Part shown: positions 1-8,223 of the stretch, one piece after another
Position numbering within the stretch: position 1 is the stretch's first letter
How the letters are laid out: each line of letters opens with the position of its first letter
Source: a virus
Taxonomy: Duplodnaviria > Heunggongvirae > Uroviricota > Caudoviricetes
Length of the DNA stretch: 11,144 nt
IMG/VR virus record: IMGVR_UViG_2695420643_000004
Location: 1-11,144 of that record
Direction: 5' to 3' (one strand)
Notes under the pieces: model-generated
Seen by the model: only the letters and a program-made list of their open reading frames with translations
Database searches by the model: none
What the model was told of the DNA's origin: nothing
Made by a program: the position numbers and the translations under genes

Positions 1-360
1 CCCGTTCCTGATGGTGTGGCGATGACGGGTACCGGTAATCCGTTCCTGATGTCGTACTTCACTCAGACCACTGACGGCAGAGTGAATCTGATGCATCACA
101 GGAAAGCCGGAAACACGAAGCTGGGGGAGTTCGGCGATTACGGTAACGACTGGCAGACGCTGGAGCTGGTGTTCACCGCCGGCAGTGCCACGGTTACTCC
201 GAAACTGAATGGAGTGGCTGGCCCGGCATTCCAGGTTATAAAAGACAGTCTGACACTGGGACTGAATGCGCTGACGCTGACGGATGTTACAAAAAATGCA
301 GCGTATGGCGTTGAGATAGAAAGTCTGGTGCTGGAGATAAATGCACCGGCATCATCATAA
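1..360 (+). CDS. 3' end of an upstream gene (5'-partial; C-terminal 119 aa, Gly/Thr/Asn-rich, probably beta-rich); product not recognised
   Basis: Frame 1 is open from base 1 to TAA at 358-360; the ORF-track start at 16 is only the first in-frame GTG. Sits upstream of the holin, the slot where lambdoid phages carry morons. No family recognised from this fragment. Confidence 0.55.
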
Positions 361-445
361 AAAGTGAGCCAGTCAAATGGAAGGTATCGTTAAACTCACC
401 GGTAGTGTCAGTGGGTCGTCTGAGACGCCTGCATGAGTTATCAGA

Positions 446-474
446 GCCATCAGTAGTTAACTGGTGGCTTTTTT
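446..474 (+). terminator. Intrinsic terminator-like hairpin downstream of the upstream gene
   Basis: Stem GCCATCAG (446-453) pairs with CTGGTGGC (461-468), one G-U wobble, 7-nt loop, followed by TTTTTT (469-474). Confidence 0.45.
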
Positions 475-509
475 ATTGTTGTCAGCTTCCGGATAACGGG
501 AGACGGGGT

Positions 510-725
510 ATGTACCAGATGGAAAAAATCACAACAGGTGTGTCATACACCACGTCAGCGGTGGGGACGGGATACTGGTTACTGCAGCTGCTGGACAAAG
601 TCTCTCCGTCCCAGTGGGTGGCAATAGGCGTGCTGGGGAGTCTGCTGTTTGGTCTGCTGACGTACCTGACGAACCTGTATTTCAAAATCAGAGAAGACCG
701 GCGTAAGGCGGCGCGGGGAGAGTAG
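510..725 (+). CDS. S: Class II holin (pinholin), phage 21 S / DLP12 EssD-like, 71 aa with dual start (Met1 at 510, Met4 at 519)
   Basis: [10 protein letters not shown]... has two TM segments: a Gly/Ala/Ser-rich TMD1 (SAR-like) and TMD2 [18 protein letters not shown], then a charged tail [24 protein letters not shown] lies just upstream of the ATG. The ORF-track start at 405 is an upstream in-frame start without a comparable RBS. Confidence 0.88.
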
Positions 726-728
726 ACG

Positions 729-1370
729 ATGAACCATGAAGAAATGAATCAGCGCATAAGTTGCCTGGAAAATGAAATCACTGAACTGAATAAAAAACTG
801 TCGGTGCTGATGGTTTCTGAAGATGAAAAAAAACGCCGCGATGAGCAGGAAGCAGCGTTTTACGATGATTGCATCAAAATTGCTCGCAGGACCTTTGCGA
901 AGATTTTGCAGGAAAAGTTTTTACCGACCGCATTGTCAGAAAAGTACTCCATTACAGTTAAAAGTGCCGGAGAGGAAGGCAATAAACGTTATTTTATTGC
1001 GTCTGCACCGGATAAAGACCAGGAATGGGGGGATAATCGGCCATCTTTTATTGTGACAAGCGATGACTGGAATATCACGATCCGTGAAGATGGAAAAGTA
1101 ACACCAGCATCGCACCAGCACAGTGAGGCGCTCATTGAATTTGCCATTGATTACCTGAAGAACAATAAAAAGCAGGGACTAATGAAGCGCATTGGTCGTT
1201 GCATGGGATATCTGCAGGTAGCTGCTGAGATTGAAGCGCTGGCCAGTGGTGCGGACAAGGATGCAGTTGTGCGGGAGGCTCTTCTTCGTGATTTTGATAA
1301 TCCGCCCTTTAAAAAAGTGCCGGCTTACTGGTTTCATCCAGGACTGACTTATCTTAAAGGACGTATATAA
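729..1370 (+). CDS. Hypothetical protein, 213 aa, soluble, N-terminal coiled-coil-like segment; inserted between holin and endolysin
   Basis: ATG is 3 nt after the holin stop with GGGGAGAG 7 nt upstream, so it is probably translationally coupled to S. Visibly AT-rich compared with flanking phage genes. No TM segment or signal peptide, and no family recognised. Confidence 0.7.
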   Translation: MNHEEMNQRISCLENEITELNKKLSVLMVSEDEKKRRDEQEAAFYDDCIKIARRTFAKILQEKFLPTALSEKYSITVKSAGEEGNKRYFIASAPDKDQEWGDNRPSFIVTSDDWNITIREDGKVTPASHQHSEALIEFAIDYLKNNKKQGLMKRIGRCMGYLQVAAEIEALASGADKDAVVREALLRDFDNPPFKKVPAYWFHPGLTYLKGRI

Positions 1371-1379
1371 GCTGGCTCG

Positions 1380-1736
1380 TTATCTGTTGCCGGATAATCG
1401 ACGGAAGATGCGTTCTTTTTGTGATTTGGCGTAATGATGATCCCACTCACATTCAAGGTAGTTTAATTCTTCGTTTAACCAGTCATTTATATTGTCTTTC
1501 AGACGTAGAAGCATGGCTGGTGTTAATATTCTGGACATAATGTCGAGAGTTGGTGGTGTGAGGTGTCCATACGGCTCAGCCTGAATGGATTTTACTGCTT
1601 CGTGGTTTTGCTGAATGAGTTTAAGGAATGCTGATTTAAATTGTTCATTCATGGCCTGCATGCAGGCGGTATATTTATGTTCATCGTTATACATTGCTAA
1701 ATCCTCGACGGGAATTGTCAGATATATTTCAGCCAT
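1380..1736 (-). CDS. Hypothetical protein, 118 aa from ATG at 1736 (122 aa if the GTG at 1748 is used); convergent with the preceding gene
   Basis: Only long ORF in the AT-rich 1371-1822 interval, where random ORFs this long are uncommon. Its stop is 9 bp from the stop of the 729-1370 gene. The RBS is weak and no family is recognised. Confidence 0.45.
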   Translation of the reverse strand: MAEIYLTIPVEDLAMYNDEHKYTACMQAMNEQFKSAFLKLIQQNHEAVKSIQAEPYGHLTPPTLDIMSRILTPAMLLRLKDNINDWLNEELNYLECEWDHHYAKSQKERIFRRLSGNR

Positions 1737-1822
1737 CAGGTAAAACACCAGTGCCCACCACTGGCGGGCTGAAGACTTAACATATCCAGGGATTCGGAAC
1801 CGATAAATCCTGATAAATATCC

Positions 1823-2356
1823 ATGAACACCAAAATCAAATACGGTCTGTCGGCTGCCGTTCTGGCGCTGATTGCCGCAGGTGCGCCTGCGCCTGAAATC
1901 CTCGACCAGTTTCTGGATGAAAAGGAAGGTAACCACACCACGGCATACCGTGATGGTGCGGGGATCTGGACCATCTGCCGTGGAGCCACCCGGGTGGATG
2001 GTAAGCCTGTTATTCCTGGCATGAAGCTGTCAAAGGAAAAATGCGACCGGGTTAACGCCATTGAACGTGATAAGGCGCTGGCATGGGTGGCGAAAAACAT
2101 CAAAGTGCCACTGACTGAACCCCAGAAAGCGGGGATCGCGTCATTCTGCCCGTATAACATTGGCCCCGGTAAGTGTTTCCCGTCGACGTTTTATAAACGA
2201 ATTAATGCAGGCGATCGCAGGGGAGCGTGTGAAGCGATTCGCTGGTGGATTAAGGATGGTGGCAGAGACTGCCGTATCCGCTCAAACAACTGTTACGGTC
2301 AGATATCCCGTCGTGACCAGGAGAGCGCGCTGACGTGCTGGGGAATCGACAGATAA
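1823..2356 (+). CDS. R: SAR endolysin (T4-lysozyme-like muramidase, GH24), DLP12 RrrD-like
   Basis: N-terminal signal-anchor-release segment YGLSAAVLALIAAGAPAP, then the lysozyme catalytic spacing E(GNHTTAYR)D(GAGIW)T. No Shine-Dalgarno motif is visible within about 15 nt upstream of the ATG. Confidence 0.9.
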   Translation: MNTKIKYGLSAAVLALIAAGAPAPEILDQFLDEKEGNHTTAYRDGAGIWTICRGATRVDGKPVIPGMKLSKEKCDRVNAIERDKALAWVAKNIKVPLTEPQKAGIASFCPYNIGPGKCFPSTFYKRINAGDRRGACEAIRWWIKDGGRDCRIRSNNCYGQISRRDQESALTCWGIDR

Positions 2357-2445
2357 GCAGAATATTTTGCTGAAAAATGACGTTGACCAACGCGGACGGA
2401 TAACACGAAATCCTGCGAACTGGCAAAACCTAAGTGAATAAAAGT

Positions 2446-2485
2446 AAAACCCCGTTTGTTGGCAGCAAGCGGGGTTTTGTGTTTC
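2446..2485 (+). terminator. Intrinsic terminator-like hairpin downstream of R
   Basis: AAAACCCCGTTTG (2446-2458) pairs with CAAGCGGGGTTTT (2466-2478), 7-nt loop, one G-U wobble, followed by a T-rich run GTGTTTCTG. Confidence 0.45.
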
Positions 2486-2511
2486 TGACCTTGGATAAGG
2501 CAAGGGAGAAC

Positions 2512-2694
2512 ATGGAAAAGTATAAACGAATTCTGTTGAGGTTGACTATGAAAAACGGCCTTGAACTGAAAGCGCCTGTAACTGATGACATCAGCAGAGC
2601 GCTGGCTTTTGCTATTAAGTGGGTGGCGGTCGGTATTGCTGTGTCTCCGATGCTGTATGGGCTGGCAAAACTGGTCATTGCGTTGAAATCGTGA
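2512..2694 (+). CDS. Small hypothetical membrane protein, 60 aa, with a C-terminal hydrophobic helix
   Basis: ATG at 2512 is preceded by AGGGAGAA. Predicted TM segment WVAVGIAVSPMLYGLAKLVIAL. The ORF-track start at 2434 is a GTG inside the terminator hairpin and is unlikely. Confidence 0.5.
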   Translation: MEKYKRILLRLTMKNGLELKAPVTDDISRALAFAIKWVAVGIAVSPMLYGLAKLVIALKS

Positions 2695-2706
2695 AGAGGA
2701 TTAAGC

Positions 2707-2838
2707 ATGTCAGACAAGCTCATAACGCTGGCGAAGATCCTCTGTGTAATCGTCGGCATTTCATTTTCACTAATGCTGGTTGCTCTTAGGCTGGATGATG
2801 TTGTCTTCGTCGGGGATGCTGGGGTGAGGGGGATATGA
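2707..2838 (+). CDS. Small hypothetical membrane peptide, 43 aa ([43 protein letters not shown])
   Basis: ATG at 2707 with GAGGA upstream; one predicted TM helix; its stop overlaps the Rz start (ATATGA). Not in the ORF track because it is short. Confidence 0.4.
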
Positions 2839-3302
2839 ACCGTGTTCTGTGTGTGGTGATTATTGTCCTGCTGGTAGCCTGTGGTGCGCTTGGTCTGGGG
2901 CTGAATCATTACCGCGATAACGCCATCACCTACAAAGCGCAGCGCGATAAAAAAGTCAGAGAGCTGGAGCTGGCGAACGCGACAATTACTGATATGCAGA
3001 TACGCCAGCGTGATGTCGCTGCGCTCGATGCAAAATACTCGAAGGAATTAGCCGATGCGAGAGCTGAAAATGAAACTCTGCGTGCTGATGTTGCCGCTGG
3101 TCGTAAGCGCCTGCGGATCAACGCCACCTGCCCCGGTACCGTGCGTGAAGCCACCGGCACCTCCGGCGTGGATAATGCAACCGGCCCCCGACTGGCAGAC
3201 ACCGCTGAACGGGATTATTTCATCCTCAGAGAACGGTTGATGATGATGCAGAAGCAGCTGGAAGGGGCGCAGGAATATATCCGCACTCAGTGTATTAACT
3301 AG
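2835..3302 (+). CDS. Rz: Rz i-spanin (inner-membrane spanin subunit), 155 aa
   Basis: N-terminal TM anchor and a coiled-coil periplasmic domain with the conserved [15 protein letters not shown]...[12 protein letters not shown] motif close to lambda Rz; nested Rz1 in the +1 frame. Confidence 0.9.
3055..3240 (+). CDS. Rz1: Rz1 o-spanin (outer-membrane lipoprotein), embedded within Rz in the +1 frame
   Basis: Lipobox LVVSAC followed by a proline-rich mature region ([32 protein letters not shown]) resembling lambda Rz1. Start could be the ATG at 3055 or 3070. Confidence 0.85.
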
Positions 3303-3325
3303 TATTTTTGTTATCCGGAGAATGC

Positions 3326-3550
3326 ATGAAGAAATTACTGGTAACCGTAAAGCCTTTTCAGGGAACAATTCCGTTCCGTGTTTTGCAGCGTGGTCGTGTT
3401 CTTATTGAAGGTTCGTTCAGTGGTAAATGTACGCAATTACACTCCCGGACCTTTCAGGTGAATGCCACGAATGAAGAGCTAACCGTGGAGTGTACGATGA
3501 ATGCCGCTAAATGCCGCATGGCATCCGCTGCATTACAGCCAGTGTGTTGA
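3326..3550 (+). CDS. Hypothetical small protein, 74 aa, four Cys, no signal peptide; in the Rz-to-cos moron slot
   Basis: ATG at 3326 preceded by CCGGAGAA. The ORF-track start at 3308 is TTG. Not Bor-like (no lipoprotein signal). Possible relationship to small DLP12-region proteins such as YbcW is unverified. Confidence 0.45.
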   Translation: MKKLLVTVKPFQGTIPFRVLQRGRVLIEGSFSGKCTQLHSRTFQVNATNEELTVECTMNAAKCRMASAALQPVC

Positions 3551-3809
3551 GCGACCTTATTATCCATGCGCGGTATTGTCGCCGTATTCCCGTATTAACA
3601 GAGACCGCAGCCCGACAGGGAGACTCCTCTGCGCGAGTGTGCGGGGATAATCAAAAACGATACACACCGGGGTTTACCGCGTTAACGGAGCGCGGCGTTG
3701 TCCCCTCATGGTCGCTGGTCCGGTGCGATGGTGGAAGAAACTGGATTTTGTTGCAACTGATAATCATTATTGTTTTCGCGGGTCCTTTCCGGCGATCCGG
3801 GCCGTTACG

Positions 3810-3821
3810 GGGCGGCGACCT
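3810..3821. other. cosN: cosN cohesive-end sequence GGGCGGCGACCT (12-nt lambda-type overhang, terminase nicking site)
   Basis: Exact match to the lambda left cohesive end as recalled. Flanks (CGGGCCGTTACG upstream, CGCGGGTTTTCGCTATTTATGAAAATTTTCCGG downstream) match recalled lambda genome ends. Confidence 0.85.
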
Positions 3822-3860
3822 CGCGGGTTTTCGCTATTTATGAAAATTTTCCGGGGAAAA

Positions 3861-3969
3861 TCATGTCGGTACTTCTCGAACATAACTATTTGTTTTTTCT
3901 AATATCGAATCCGTAAAGGTCCGACATGAAAACGCCTGAAAAAGTCATTTTCGGGCACTTTCATGTCGG
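3861..3969. promoter_or_regulatory. cosB: cosB: three putative small-terminase R elements (TCATGTCGG at 3861-3869 forward, 3920-3928 inverted, 3961-3969 forward) with an A/T-rich putative IHF site (about 3881-3912) between the first and second
   Basis: Three copies of one 9-mer in alternating orientation within 110 bp between cosN and nu1, mirroring the lambda R3-I1-R2-R1 layout. The motif differs from the lambda R element as I recall it (CGTTTCC core). Confidence 0.6.
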
Positions 3970-3996
3970 ATCCTGTATTTGTTGTGAGACTGTTTC

Positions 3997-4516
3997 ATGA
4001 AGGTTAATAAAAAGAAACTTGCCGAAATTTTCAACGTGGATCCGCGAACGATTGAACGCTGGCAGTCTCAGGGGCTCCCTTGCGTCTCCGGAGGTGGTAA
4101 GGGCGTTGAATCTGTATTTGATACCGCCACGGCAATTCAGTGGTATGCGCAGAGGGAAGCTGATATCGAAAATGAAAAACTCCGTAAAGAGGTTGAGGAT
4201 TACAGGGCTGCCAGCGAGGCAGATCTCCAGCCTGGGACTATTGAGTACGAACGCCATCGACTTACGCGTGCGCAGGCTGACGCCCAGGAGCTGAAGAATG
4301 CCAGAGACTCCGCAGAAGTGGTGGAAACCGCATTCTGTACTTTCGTGCTGTCACGGATCGCAGGTGAAATTGCCAGTATTCTTGACGGGATCCCTCTCTC
4401 AGTACAGCGGCGTTTTCCGGAACTGGAAAACCGACATGTTGATTTCCTGAAACGGGATATTATCAAAGCCATGAACAAAGCAGCCGCGCTGGATGAACTG
4501 ATACCGGGGTTGCTGA

Positions 4517-4542
<26 letters not shown>
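3997..4542 (+). CDS. nu1: Terminase small subunit (Nu1/gp1), 181 aa
   Basis: The C-terminal two thirds match lambda Nu1 as recalled ([56 protein letters not shown]...). The N-terminal DNA-binding domain is divergent. Overlaps A by 26 nt as in lambda. Confidence 0.95.

Positions 4543-8223
<3,681 letters not shown>

Follow-up and report, generated by a model that had tools for sequence, protein, structure and literature searches.

The closest described counterparts of the peptides studied here are small membrane proteins of phage lysis. The holin/antiholin pairs of lambda (S105/S107) and phage 21 (S21 68/71) are small membrane proteins of the lysis cassette that depend on the Q-controlled late promoter; the lambda cassette is functional without any insert between its R and Rz genes. 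MS2 L, whose N-terminal half is basic and hydrophilic and whose C-terminal helix is hydrophobic, represents peptides of about 60 to 75 aa from ssRNA phages that are sufficient for lysis on their own. The type I toxins (Hok, TisB, Ibs, and ZorO) are likewise hydrophobic peptides of at most 60 aa. In phage Mu, the releasin gp25 (DUF2730) is described as a membrane-tethered, mostly cytoplasmic, non-holin accessory lysis factor encoded alongside an endolysin of the signal-anchor-release (SAR) type and spanins, and its family is described as occurring with cytoplasmic endolysins as well (PMC9239132). Classical morons, as defined by Juhala et al. 2000 (cited in PMC4104026), are preceded by a promoter of their own, followed by a terminator, and active in the lysogen.

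Here, we compare with these systems two small ORFs, ORF60 and ORF43, that lie between the endolysin and spanin genes in a window of 11,144 nucleotides (the whole stretch of DNA that was analyzed) from the late region of a lambda-like E. coli prophage. We show that the insert holding them is a mosaic cargo slot of the lambdoid lysis cassette with two independent modules in the window, namely, a portable unit in which a short leader links an intrinsic terminator hairpin to ORF60, and a second module, ORF43, which belongs to a family of single-helix peptides of ∼43 aa located directly 5' of Rz in lambdoid phages, Stx phages among them. The features on which the argument rests are as follows.

510-725, + strand: S21-type class II holin (pinholin family; PF04971, E = 1e-32), located upstream in the same lysis cassette
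1823-2356, + strand: endolysin R, a P21/RrrQ-type phage lysozyme (PF00959, E = 2.7e-24; phrog_7 endolysin)
2357-2445, + strand: conserved 89-nt spacer 3' of R, common to R21-type cassettes irrespective of cargo (small ORFs, ant, or other peptides)
2446-2485, + strand: intrinsic-terminator-type hairpin with A-run, GC-rich stem, and T-run; 5' boundary of the portable ORF60 cassette
2489-2509, + strand: ORF60 leader, with a small hairpin (CCTTG..CAAGG, 2489-2505) and the Shine-Dalgarno sequence AGGGAGA (2503-2509)
2512-2694, + strand: ORF60, ATG start, 60 aa, predicted tail-anchored membrane peptide (phrog_1115)
2518-2565, + strand: invariant 5' coding tract of ORF60, 48 nt without substitutions between E. 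coli and Salmonella
2519-2548, - strand: hypothetical promoter-like site, TAGTCA-18-TATACT
2538-2550, + strand: possible internal start of ORF60 (GAGG, 6 nt, ATG; Met13), predicted product of 48 aa
2707-2838, + strand: ORF43, 43 aa, frameshifted allele of the phrog_4906 small membrane peptide
2835-3302, + strand: Rz i-spanin (PF03245, E = 8e-50)
3055-3240, + strand: Rz1 o-spanin lipoprotein, embedded in Rz (PF06085, E = 1.7e-21)

A mosaic slot between endolysin and spanin genes

The gene order in the window is S21-type holin, P21-type lysozyme R, an insert of 478 nt, Rz/Rz1, a lambda-type cos site, and terminase; the insert contains the hairpin with its T-run and both ORFs, in the orientation of the lysis genes. 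Their co-oriented position between R and Rz is thus confirmed. The first-pass annotation had taken the overlap of ORF43 with the Rz start as a sign that the ORFs appear integrated into the operon, but this overlap comes from an 11-nt frameshifting deletion. The N terminus of R (MNTKIKYGLSAAVLALIAAGAPAP) reads as a short Lys-containing cytoplasmic part followed by a segment that looks like a SAR segment. As in Mu, the cassette pairs a small, here predicted, membrane-tethered peptide with a SAR-like endolysin and spanins. However, gp25 is anchored by an N-terminal transmembrane domain (TMD), whereas the helix of ORF60 is C-terminal, and neither ORF60 nor ORF43 matches DUF2730 in Pfam.

Comparison across genomes shows how variable this junction is. 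In the Qin prophage of K-12, the insert is absent and rrrQ overlaps rzpQ directly. Positions 1 to 154 of the insert query match genomes without ORF60 and ORF43 (H55-H60), and in an Stx1 phage the same spacer is followed by a different terminator and ant. At least 80% of the insert is present in 990 of 5,426 complete E. coli genomes (about one in five), and both ORFs are found in the plaque-forming temperate phages PhiR12 and PhiR5, of which the inducible PhiR12_1 has accession PV340549; 933W has an ORF43 homologue only. The two ORFs are separable and form no fixed pair: Stx phages carry ORF43 and ant without ORF60, and Salmonella carries ORF60 without ORF43. ORF43 abuts Rz with either ant or ORF60 upstream, and at one locus (L010) its peptide is found without Rz. 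ORF60 homologues lie directly 3' of five endolysin types—P21 lysozyme, the lysozyme of HP1-type holin cassettes, GH19, GH108, and an M15-like peptidase—and usually directly 5' of Rz; in most cassettes examined, ORF60 is immediately 3' of the endolysin gene or of the ant gene that follows it. Overall, the R-Rz slot may be empty or hold ant, ORF60, ORF43, or peptides of phrog_4493 and phrog_6632 in many combinations, these last being tail-anchored as well and forming hybrids among themselves. Diverged members of the ORF60 family also occur outside lysis cassettes, that is, 3' of tail-fiber genes, 3' of the major capsid gene, and in a P2-type slot between the tail-fiber and sheath genes. A scan of GTDB contigs with the ORF60 alignment yielded no confirmed locus, and the diverged DNA copies used here were obtained from contigs encoding homologues. 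In two cassettes, a small lipoprotein (phrog_7528) lies 3' of the ORFs.

The two membrane peptides

The coordinates first given for the two ORFs were borne out, as were their plausible ribosome-binding sites, AGGGAGA for ORF60 and AGAGGA (2695-2700) for ORF43, and the claim that each encodes one hydrophobic helix, with best 19-residue Kyte-Doolittle means of 1.90 (residues 38-56) and 2.51 (residues 11-29), respectively. ORF60 lies within an 86-aa ORF that begins with GTG at 2434, and a spacer of 2 nt (2510-2511) separates its Shine-Dalgarno sequence from the ATG at 2512. Its product has a basic helix at the N terminus, the motif KNGLELKAP, and, at the C terminus, a TM helix (AFAIKWVAVGIAVSPMLYGLAKLVIALKS); AlphaFold2 places helices at residues 2-15 and 23-59, with a pLDDT of about 90 over residues 31-60. 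We therefore predict a tail-anchored single helix with a basic cytoplasmic N terminus. In overall layout this arrangement resembles that of MS2 L; the two have no sequence similarity. ORF60 is intact in the window and matches the phrog_1115 profile over its full length (E = 1.4e-42; residues 1-60 on profile positions 8-67 of 67). The exact protein is found on about 1,000 contigs, and all of its 121 homologues in Escherichia and Salmonella are annotated as hypothetical.

Conservation of the reading frames, proposed in the first-pass annotation as a check on the ORFs, was found for both. For ORF60, comparison with Salmonella homologues gives a dN/dS of 0.05 to 0.13 on codons 19-60 at a pS of about 0.6, which identifies it, by its substitution pattern, as a genuine protein-coding gene under strong purifying selection. 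For the canonical ORF43 frame, dN/dS between distinct alleles is mostly 0.05 to 0.6, including the C-terminal third; two comparisons of closely related alleles with few substitutions exceed 1. In the last 17 codons, the Sakai and Stx-phage alleles differ by 8 synonymous versus 2 non-synonymous changes, and Sakai versus L010 gives a dN/dS of 0.06. Sequence comparison thus confirms that both ORFs are more than chance frames and are conserved genes for single-helix membrane peptides. A 159-aa antisense ORF (2430-2909, minus strand) was rejected as coding, since the antisense frames differ in length and phase among homologues and the selection signal lies in the sense frame.

The 5' part of ORF60 behaves differently from the rest of the gene. 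The 48-nt tract shows 0 synonymous differences on 10.3 synonymous sites, compared to the downstream pS of about 0.6, and points to either an extra nucleotide-level constraint or a recombination tract. Within it lies a possible second in-frame start with a candidate ribosome-binding site of its own; Met1 and Met13 are both conserved, Met13 is kept across the wider ORF60 family, many of whose members start with MKNGLE, and an SD-like GGAGG is retained in one diverged copy (L096) despite differing residues. ORF60 is a dual-start candidate that may be made in two forms, and the longer form would carry a positively charged N-terminal extension, as in the holin/antiholin pairs. The resemblance to these pairs is limited in that ORF60 has one C-terminal helix instead of two or three TMDs, an S21 holin is already encoded in the cassette, and ORF60 also accompanies unrelated holin types. 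At E ≤ 1, Pfam returns no holin match for ORF60, and class II holins and pinholins (PF04971 and PF16080) have two TMDs compared to its one predicted helix. More generally, we detected no sequence or profile similarity of ORF60 or ORF43 to holins, antiholins, releasins, or spanins, and sequence searches of Pfam, NCBIfam, PADLOC, and PDB gave no match, whether the query was one of the two ORFs or an alternative slot peptide.

A further likeness to S21 is that the ORF60 helix is rich in Ala, Gly, and Ser, and a stretch of 16 residues bears a weak resemblance to S21 TMD2 (E = 0.002 in a single pairwise comparison). Homology to this TMD was considered and rejected: an HMM of the family, searched against 1.84 billion representatives, does not recover the similarity and finds just 22 small peptides, none of them a holin. 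We treat it as resemblance or as the product of a microhomology-mediated deletion. A natural S21-ORF60 chimera exists (P0120).

The window's copy of ORF43 is not representative of its family. Residues 1-27, including TM residues 8-27, are canonical, but alignment and an allele census show an 11-nt deletion with its junction after 2787, which puts the last 16 residues (28-43) out of the family frame, whose stop would be the TGA at 2825-2827. Because of this deletion, the window's ORF43 matches phrog_4906 only over residues 1-28 (E = 6.6e-15), compared to residues 1-43 (E = 2e-23) in canonical relatives, and its stop overlaps the Rz start as ATGA (2835-2838). In relatives, ORF43 ends 7 nt 5' of Rz, with the Rz SD (GAGGGGGA) at the end of the ORF, so that the overlap is a derived feature of this lineage. 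The exact frameshifted variant is present on 331 contigs, implying that the peptide is dispensable, at least in prophages, and the window's copy is possibly decaying. By contrast, the family is full length and directly 5' of Rz in all 276 matching phage records, most of them Shiga-toxin phages and 933W among them, where it is usually unannotated. For the window itself, then, the message is modest: an intact ORF60 and a frameshifted allele of ORF43. The broader point is that lambdoid lysis cassettes, among the best-studied modules in biology, contain conserved and selected genes for small membrane peptides that are often unannotated.

Predicted late expression and proposed role

The strong hairpin with a T-run reported upstream of the ORFs stands. 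Its sequence (AAAACCCCGTTTGTTGGCAGCAAGCGGGGTTTT, 2446-2478, then GTGTTT up to 2484) folds at -21.6 kcal/mol (z = -4.8), with 0 of 200 shuffles folding equally well, and consists of a GC-rich stem of 15 to 16 bp followed by TTTTGTGTTT, the stem-loop and U-run of an intrinsic (Rho-independent) terminator, whose activity is predicted. Across 10 variants, 99% of cells are paired, 3 pairs show compensatory changes, and 4 variants contain a U·G wobble that pairs only on the + strand. Since a simple terminator scan did not report this hairpin, the case for a terminator rests on folding and covariation. The A-run and T-run make it potentially bidirectional. Upstream of ORF60 homologues, the hairpin also occurs in GH108, M15, GH19, and HP1-type cassettes and at one tail-fiber locus.

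From the T-run to the ORF60 start codon there are 26 nt, too few for a promoter, and a promoter scan called no promoter-like site on the + strand in 1-4200. Given the strong upstream terminator and no promoter, expression is expected to depend on Q-antiterminated late transcription. Separately, the spacer between R and the hairpin contains TTGACC-17-CGAAAT, a poor sense-promoter candidate that the scan did not call.

The most likely reading, which we infer from this arrangement, is that ORF60 and ORF43 are accessory membrane peptides expressed late and acting at lysis; a two-module cargo slot with Q-dependent expression of accessory lysis factors is our best explanation of the locus, with a rough probability of 45%. 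Both peptides would be produced only when Q-modified RNA polymerase reads through the terminator, late in lytic growth and together with the holin, endolysin, and spanins, and the terminator would protect against leaky transcription, in the lysogen, of a gene whose peptide is potentially toxic to the membrane. Once inserted in the cytoplasmic membrane, the peptides would act as non-essential accessory factors of envelope disruption, tuning holin triggering, the release of membrane-tethered endolysin, or spanin activity, possibly through helix-helix contacts on the Ala/Gly/Ser-rich face of the ORF60 helix. The link to lysis is favored by the position of ORF60 homologues next to five endolysin types and usually before Rz, by the presence of other tail-anchored peptides in this slot, and by the constant place of ORF43 against Rz, be it ant or ORF60 that lies upstream; against it count (i) the diverged family members outside lysis cassettes, (ii) the lack of similarity to lysis proteins, (iii) the functionality of insert-free cassettes, and (iv) the persistence of frameshifted ORF43. 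Among the roles suggested at the outset, modulation of lysis timing and membrane toxicity remain plausible. Superinfection exclusion from the lysogen, also suggested, is unlikely in view of the strong terminator, and the lack of a promoter, in front of the ORFs.

If the peptides tune lysis, they would matter for when Shiga toxin is released and for the size of phage bursts. We consider rather unlikely, as a whole, the bolder proposal that phrog_1115 (ORF60) and phrog_4906 (ORF43) are new classes of trans-acting lysis regulators, tail-anchored and made from the antiterminated transcript only, whose binding to holin, membrane-tethered endolysin, or Rz would determine when, or how sharply, lysis occurs, the promoter-less cassette headed by a terminator being a distinct way to carry toxic late-operon cargo. 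Were it true, the ORF43 homologues found 5' of Rz in 276 of 276 records would affect when the toxin is released.

Alternative readings

The alternative that survives best, unlikely but a genuine contender, is that the peptides are generic late-operon cargo with a membrane function unrelated to lysis, such as a late block of DNA entry by other phages or of progeny re-adsorption, or inhibition of a host membrane protein, and that the site beside R is simply a permissive recombination slot. The mosaic content of the slot fits this reading, as do the family members 3' of tail-fiber genes, the classical place of exclusion genes, those after the capsid gene and in the P2-type slot, and the lipoprotein that follows the ORFs in two cassettes. 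The lambdoid morons lambda Bor and Lom, phi80/N15 Cor, and HK97 gp15 are comparable in being small envelope proteins and optional cargo of late-region junctions, including tail-fiber-adjacent slots. However, the present arrangement departs from a moron in the sense of Juhala et al. in that the terminator lies upstream, no promoter was found, and ORF43 and Rz follow directly downstream; the strong terminator in front and the lack of a promoter argue against the prophage expression that is normal for exclusion genes. Neither ORF60, nor ORF43 in its window or canonical form, nor any alternative slot peptide matched a family (0 hits) among the PADLOC-DB defense and exclusion profiles, and the position of ORF60 directly 3' of the endolysin, or of ant after it, in most cassettes and with five unrelated endolysin families is also at odds with a merely permissive site. 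Should the peptides have another role than lysis, the R-Rz junction would serve generally to accommodate membrane cargo that is expressed late and insulated by a terminator.

For ORF43 only, it is improbable that the ORF is mainly a translated spacer, in which termination in or next to the Rz ribosome-binding site restores the coupling of Rz seen in the R-Rz overlap of insert-free cassettes, with the peptide itself being of minor importance. ORF43 indeed always abuts Rz, by a 7-nt gap in canonical alleles and by the ATGA overlap in the window, so that even the common frameshifted allele still ends at Rz. Yet, the canonical protein is constrained even in its last 17 codons, its length and hydrophobic character are kept across 276 phage records, and L010 has the peptide without Rz.

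We regard a type I toxin-antitoxin-like module with ORF60 as its toxin as quite improbable. The minus-strand promoter-like site would yield an antisense RNA of ∼72 to 75 nt, running from near 2512 over the ORF60 start and SD to the bidirectional hairpin, and would thereby mask the ribosome-binding site and start and silence a membrane-depolarizing peptide. ORF60 shares with the type I toxins its small size and hydrophobicity and this candidate antisense RNA ending at a terminator. Diverged copies retain equivalent minus-strand hexamers (TGGACA-18-TATACT in L007 and TTGGCC-16-TATACT in L096), the 48 nt that cover the site are invariant between E. coli and Salmonella, and the hairpin has both an A-run and a T-run, being followed on the minus strand by TTTTACTTTTATT. 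In addition, as in mok/hok, some ORF60 copies (Salmonella and L007) have a coupled leader ORF, here of 8 codons and joined to the start as GTGA, beside an SD-sequestering stem. On the other hand, the site is a weak match to consensus (9 of 12) and the sole promoter-like site found where shuffles give 5.0 ± 2.5, so that it is not significant alone; the U·G wobble of the stem pairs on the + strand only; and the 48-nt invariance is equally explicable by the internal start, a conserved N-terminal motif, or a recombination tract. Unlike type I toxin genes, ORF60 has no dedicated promoter on the + strand in 1-4200, no sequence similarity to these toxins, and a co-directional position in a phage late operon. 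Published Sakai sRNA data report no Hfq-bound or other sRNA at the Sp14 locus, and Rfam 15 (E ≤ 1, including prophage anti-sRNAs) gives no match in 2357-2838, with only three sub-threshold microRNA-model matches elsewhere in the window.

Other leads to an RNA or a product at the locus were pursued. The Hfq-CRAC sites EcOnc10/11/12 seemed to lie at a fitting distance, but they map downstream of Rz instead of to the R-Rz hairpin, and AsxR and AgvB are unrelated in sequence. The supplements of the Sakai RIBO-seq small-gene paper list neither the peptide nor the neighboring locus tags, and a full-text literature search for ECs2740 found nothing.

Finally, that the ORFs are chance open frames in a noncoding spacer is very improbable: both are short, the first 5 kb contain 65 ORFs of 30 aa or more, and two antisense frames are also open across ORF60, but this reading is already contradicted by the strong purifying selection in the sense frames, the conservation across Escherichia and Salmonella of ribosome-binding sites as well as starts and stops, and the PHROG family matches.

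The endolysin-spanin junction and its contents

The window is a lambda-like prophage late region from E. coli; the features discussed here are as follows.

Features of the window
510-725, S21-type class II holin (PF04971)
729-1370, + strand, 213-aa cargo ORF (phrog_1085, no function annotated)
1380-1748, - strand, convergent 122-aa cargo ORF (phrog_1853, no function annotated)
1823-2356, lysozyme gene R, P21/RrrQ-type, SAR-like N-terminus (PF00959)
2357-2834, 478-nt R-Rz insert
2446-2478, hairpin
2512-2694, + strand, ORF60 (60 aa; phrog_1115, no function annotated)
2707-2838, + strand, ORF43 (43 aa)
2835-3302, spanin gene Rz (PF03245)
3055-3240, spanin gene Rz1, inside Rz (PF06085)
3326-3550, 74-aa ORF directly 3' of Rz (phrog_2571, no function annotated)
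3810-3821, lambda-type cosN
3997-4542, Nu1
4517-6442, terminase A

Segment 2357-2838 (482 nt) has a perfect (100%) match in E. coli GB089. Among 5,426 complete E. coli genomes, 1,953 carry some part of it and 990 carry at least 80%. Since rrrQ and rzpQ overlap directly in K-12 Qin, the R-Rz segment is a true insertion relative to a minimal cassette. Comparison across phages and prophages shows that ORF60 and ORF43 are separable modules: Stx phages carry a different terminator followed by ant, an ORF43 homologue, and Rz; Salmonella prophages have ORF60 without ORF43; and other E. coli prophages combine ORF60 with a peptide ending in IRWW, or have only that peptide or only a phrog_6632 peptide. 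Rearranged and hybrid versions also exist. It is firmly established that two conserved small-membrane-peptide genes are optional cargo of this junction, one of them frameshifted in the window. Both families already stand in PHROGs and RefSeq with function unassigned, so the ORFs themselves are no discovery; new here are the selection evidence for both, the frameshift that ORF43 carries in the window, the portable unit of terminator and ORF, the full-length state of the ORF43 family in every matching phage record, and a candidate dual start and antisense element.

The 89-nt spacer after R (2357-2445) is kept whether small ORFs, ant, or other peptides lie downstream. The holin-endolysin interval is a second cargo slot, filled here by the two ORFs at 729-1370 and 1380-1748 and in related prophages by YdfR/DUF1327, DUF1823, IS1, or IS629. 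The 74-aa ORF, shared with many related prophages, occupies the position of bor in lambda. CosN and the left-end sequence (GGGCGGCGACCTCGCGGGTTTTCGCTATTTATGAAAATTTTCCGG) are identical to lambda, and a long inverted repeat (GGTCCGACATGAAA...TTTCATGTCGGATCC; region 3913-3978) immediately 5' of Nu1, ~100 nt past cosN, produces spurious microRNA-model matches on both strands.

Selection on both frames and a frameshift in ORF43

The positions given in the first-pass annotation for both ORFs and the hairpin are correct, as are its plausible ribosome-binding sites (AGGGAGA, 2503-2509, for ORF60; AGAGGA, 2695-2700, for ORF43) and its one hydrophobic helix per ORF, each peptide having a single strongly hydrophobic segment. 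Conservation of the reading frames, on which it let its proposal depend, holds for ORF60 and the canonical ORF43 frame, both of which show protein-level constraint. For ORF60, the window copy was compared with five Salmonella and two diverged E. coli copies. Codons 19-60 against Salmonella gave pS of 0.59-0.67, pN of 0.11-0.17, and dN/dS of 0.09-0.13 (0.05-0.12 for the helix by itself), and the E. coli copies, at lower divergence (pS 0.18-0.27), gave dN/dS of 0.10-0.16; these substitution patterns point clearly to protein-level selection.

In ORF43 the picture is divided. Residues 1-28 match phrog_4906, and the match ends there: DNA alignment reveals an 11-nt deletion after 2787 relative to all other alleles, which puts residues 28-43 in a different frame, one that happens to stop on the TGA within the Rz ATGA (2835-2838). 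The overlap with the Rz start reported at first pass therefore exists but is reached through the frameshift, whereas canonical copies stop 7 nt 5' of Rz. The canonical frame, judged by pS 0.32 and pN 0.02 (Sakai versus Stx-phage allele) and by pS 0.57 and pN 0.16 (L010, a related locus, versus AU5), is under constraint, with a signal that takes in the last 17 codons; two close-allele comparisons with few substitutions gave ratios above 1. It is full-length, and mostly unannotated, in all 276 phage records containing it (e.g., 933W, phi24B, Min27, and P13374). The frameshifted allele was found in 9 of 84 related loci examined and is absent from the 276 records of isolated phages; its protein is present on 331 contigs and so is not a sequencing error.

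The 121 ORF60 relatives in Escherichia and Salmonella are all labelled hypothetical, and none has a Pfam domain. AlphaFold2, run on the family alignment, predicts two helices, an N-terminal one at low confidence (2-15) and a long, confident one (23-59); together with the hydrophobic segment, these make ORF60 resemble a tail-anchored peptide whose N-terminus is basic and cytoplasmic. Searching 1.84 billion representative proteins with an HMM returned 22 relatives in all, peptides of 20-71 aa except for one uninspected 4413-residue protein; the 14 that were read have in common the motif (Y-K/R-R-x-L-R-L-T)-M-K-N-G-L-E-x-D-A-P and, after it, a variable hydrophobic tail. Some relatives sit 3' of tail-fibre genes or the major capsid gene and some in the P2-type tail-fibre/sheath slot, in every case co-oriented with the late genes.

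Tandem paralogues of the ORF60 family (the first of 47 or 64 aa, the second of 55 aa) at a Salmonella prophage end, 3' of a SASA-esterase tail-spike gene (L097 3356-3668; L098 165-528), show duplication outside lysis cassettes. One protein on a 554-nt ENA contig (P0120) is a natural chimera of the N-terminal two thirds of the S21 holin and the ORF60 C-terminal helix, joined at the WVA(I/V)G motif common to both, and probably formed through microhomology-mediated deletion across R.

A hairpin-led unit and its predicted expression

The strong hairpin with a T-run noticed upstream of ORF60 has a folding energy of -21.6 kcal/mol (z = -4.8); its T-rich tail runs to 2484/5. It is absent from the output of a simple terminator scan, so the case for a terminator rests on folding and comparative evidence. 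Its distance to ORF60 is constant across several unrelated contexts with non-homologous sequence 5' of it: behind a GH108 endolysin (L010), an M15-like peptidase cassette (L051), or GH19 (L093), in HP1-type holin cassettes, and after tail-fibre genes (L096). On this comparison, the hairpin is to be assigned to ORF60, not R. Ten stem variants show compensatory changes at three pairs, with 99% of cells paired, and four of them have a U.G wobble, which pairs on the + strand only and favours function in the sense transcript.

Between the T-run and the ORF60 start codon there are only 26 nt, and a promoter scan found no + strand promoter-like site anywhere in 1-4200. In lambda, Q-modified polymerase reads through intrinsic terminators. 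Taken together, these points suggest that ORF60, ORF43, and Rz should be made only from the antiterminated late transcript, and that the hairpin would stop unmodified polymerase arriving from upstream cargo or IS elements.

Met13 of ORF60, conserved family-wide, is preceded by GAGG with a 6-nt spacer, and L096 keeps an SD despite different residues, which makes two products (60 and 48 aa) possible. Positions 2518-2565 (48 nt) do not differ between E. coli and Salmonella, even though downstream synonymous sites are near saturation; by our own calculation from the pS figures, zero changes on 10.3 synonymous sites has a chance of ~5e-5. This block includes a minus-strand promoter-like site (TAGTCA-18-TATACT) whose hexamers are kept in diverged copies and which, if active, would give a ~72-75-nt antisense RNA that covers the SD and start codon and terminates at the hairpin.

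EcOnc11, EcOnc12, and EcOnc10, published Hfq-bound sites of Sakai (NC_002695 1946819-1946867, 1779522-1779569, and 2234239-2234287; L102, L103), were rejected as RNAs of the ORF60 locus, their candidate sites mapping downstream of Rz. EcOnc11 and EcOnc10 lie just 3' of Rz, antisense to the late operon, beside a small DUF3950/YnfO-like gene; in the window this interval corresponds to about 3550-3800. The 89-nt spacer after R has a weak promoter-like TTGACC-17-CGAAAT, absent from the promoter-scan calls, which could start a short sense RNA with its end at the hairpin. An 8-codon leader ORF (MCREVCSL or MGREVLSL) is present in Salmonella copies and in part of the E. coli copies; its stop overlaps the GTG start of the peptide gene (GTGA), with an AGGGA/TCCCT stem over a second SD (L092-L094 and L100-L101, ~60 nt 5' of the ORF60 homologue; L007 2650-2700); the window copy lacks ~27 nt of this region, the leader ATG being fused straight to ORF60.

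Proposed accessory lysis factors or other cargo

We favour the reading, drawn from gene context and given a probability of about 0.45, that both peptides are late-expressed accessory factors that would act in the cytoplasmic membrane at lysis. It is suggested by the position of ORF60, downstream of endolysins from five unrelated families and usually ahead of Rz, by ORF43 always abutting Rz, by the repeated filling of the slot with peptides of similar design, and by a terminator-first, promoter-less layout suited to a product not to be made in the lysogen. Against it, neither peptide has homology to any lysis protein, distant relatives occupy non-lysis late slots, and the inserts are dispensable. 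That the peptides are cargo without a part in lysis we consider rather unlikely, and a coupling role for ORF43 improbable. A type I toxin-like module is more doubtful still, its candidate antisense RNA having no entry at the ORF60 locus in the Sakai Hfq-CRAC table, and chance ORFs are scarcely credible given the protein-level selection on ORF60 and the canonical ORF43 frame.

The closest functional analogies are holin/antiholin pairs, Mu releasin gp25 (PMC9239132), type I toxins, and moron-encoded envelope proteins; checked criterion by criterion, membership is established for none of these classes, and we group both peptides with the small accessory membrane proteins that phages encode in their late and lysis regions. 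Where a cassette has a GH108 or M15-type endolysin and lacks a recognisable Rz, a lipoprotein of 51-60 aa (lipobox LLVGC, three Cys; phrog_7528, no function annotated) lies 3' of the small ORFs (L010 2439-2594; L051 3108-3374); it may serve in exclusion or as an atypical spanin component.
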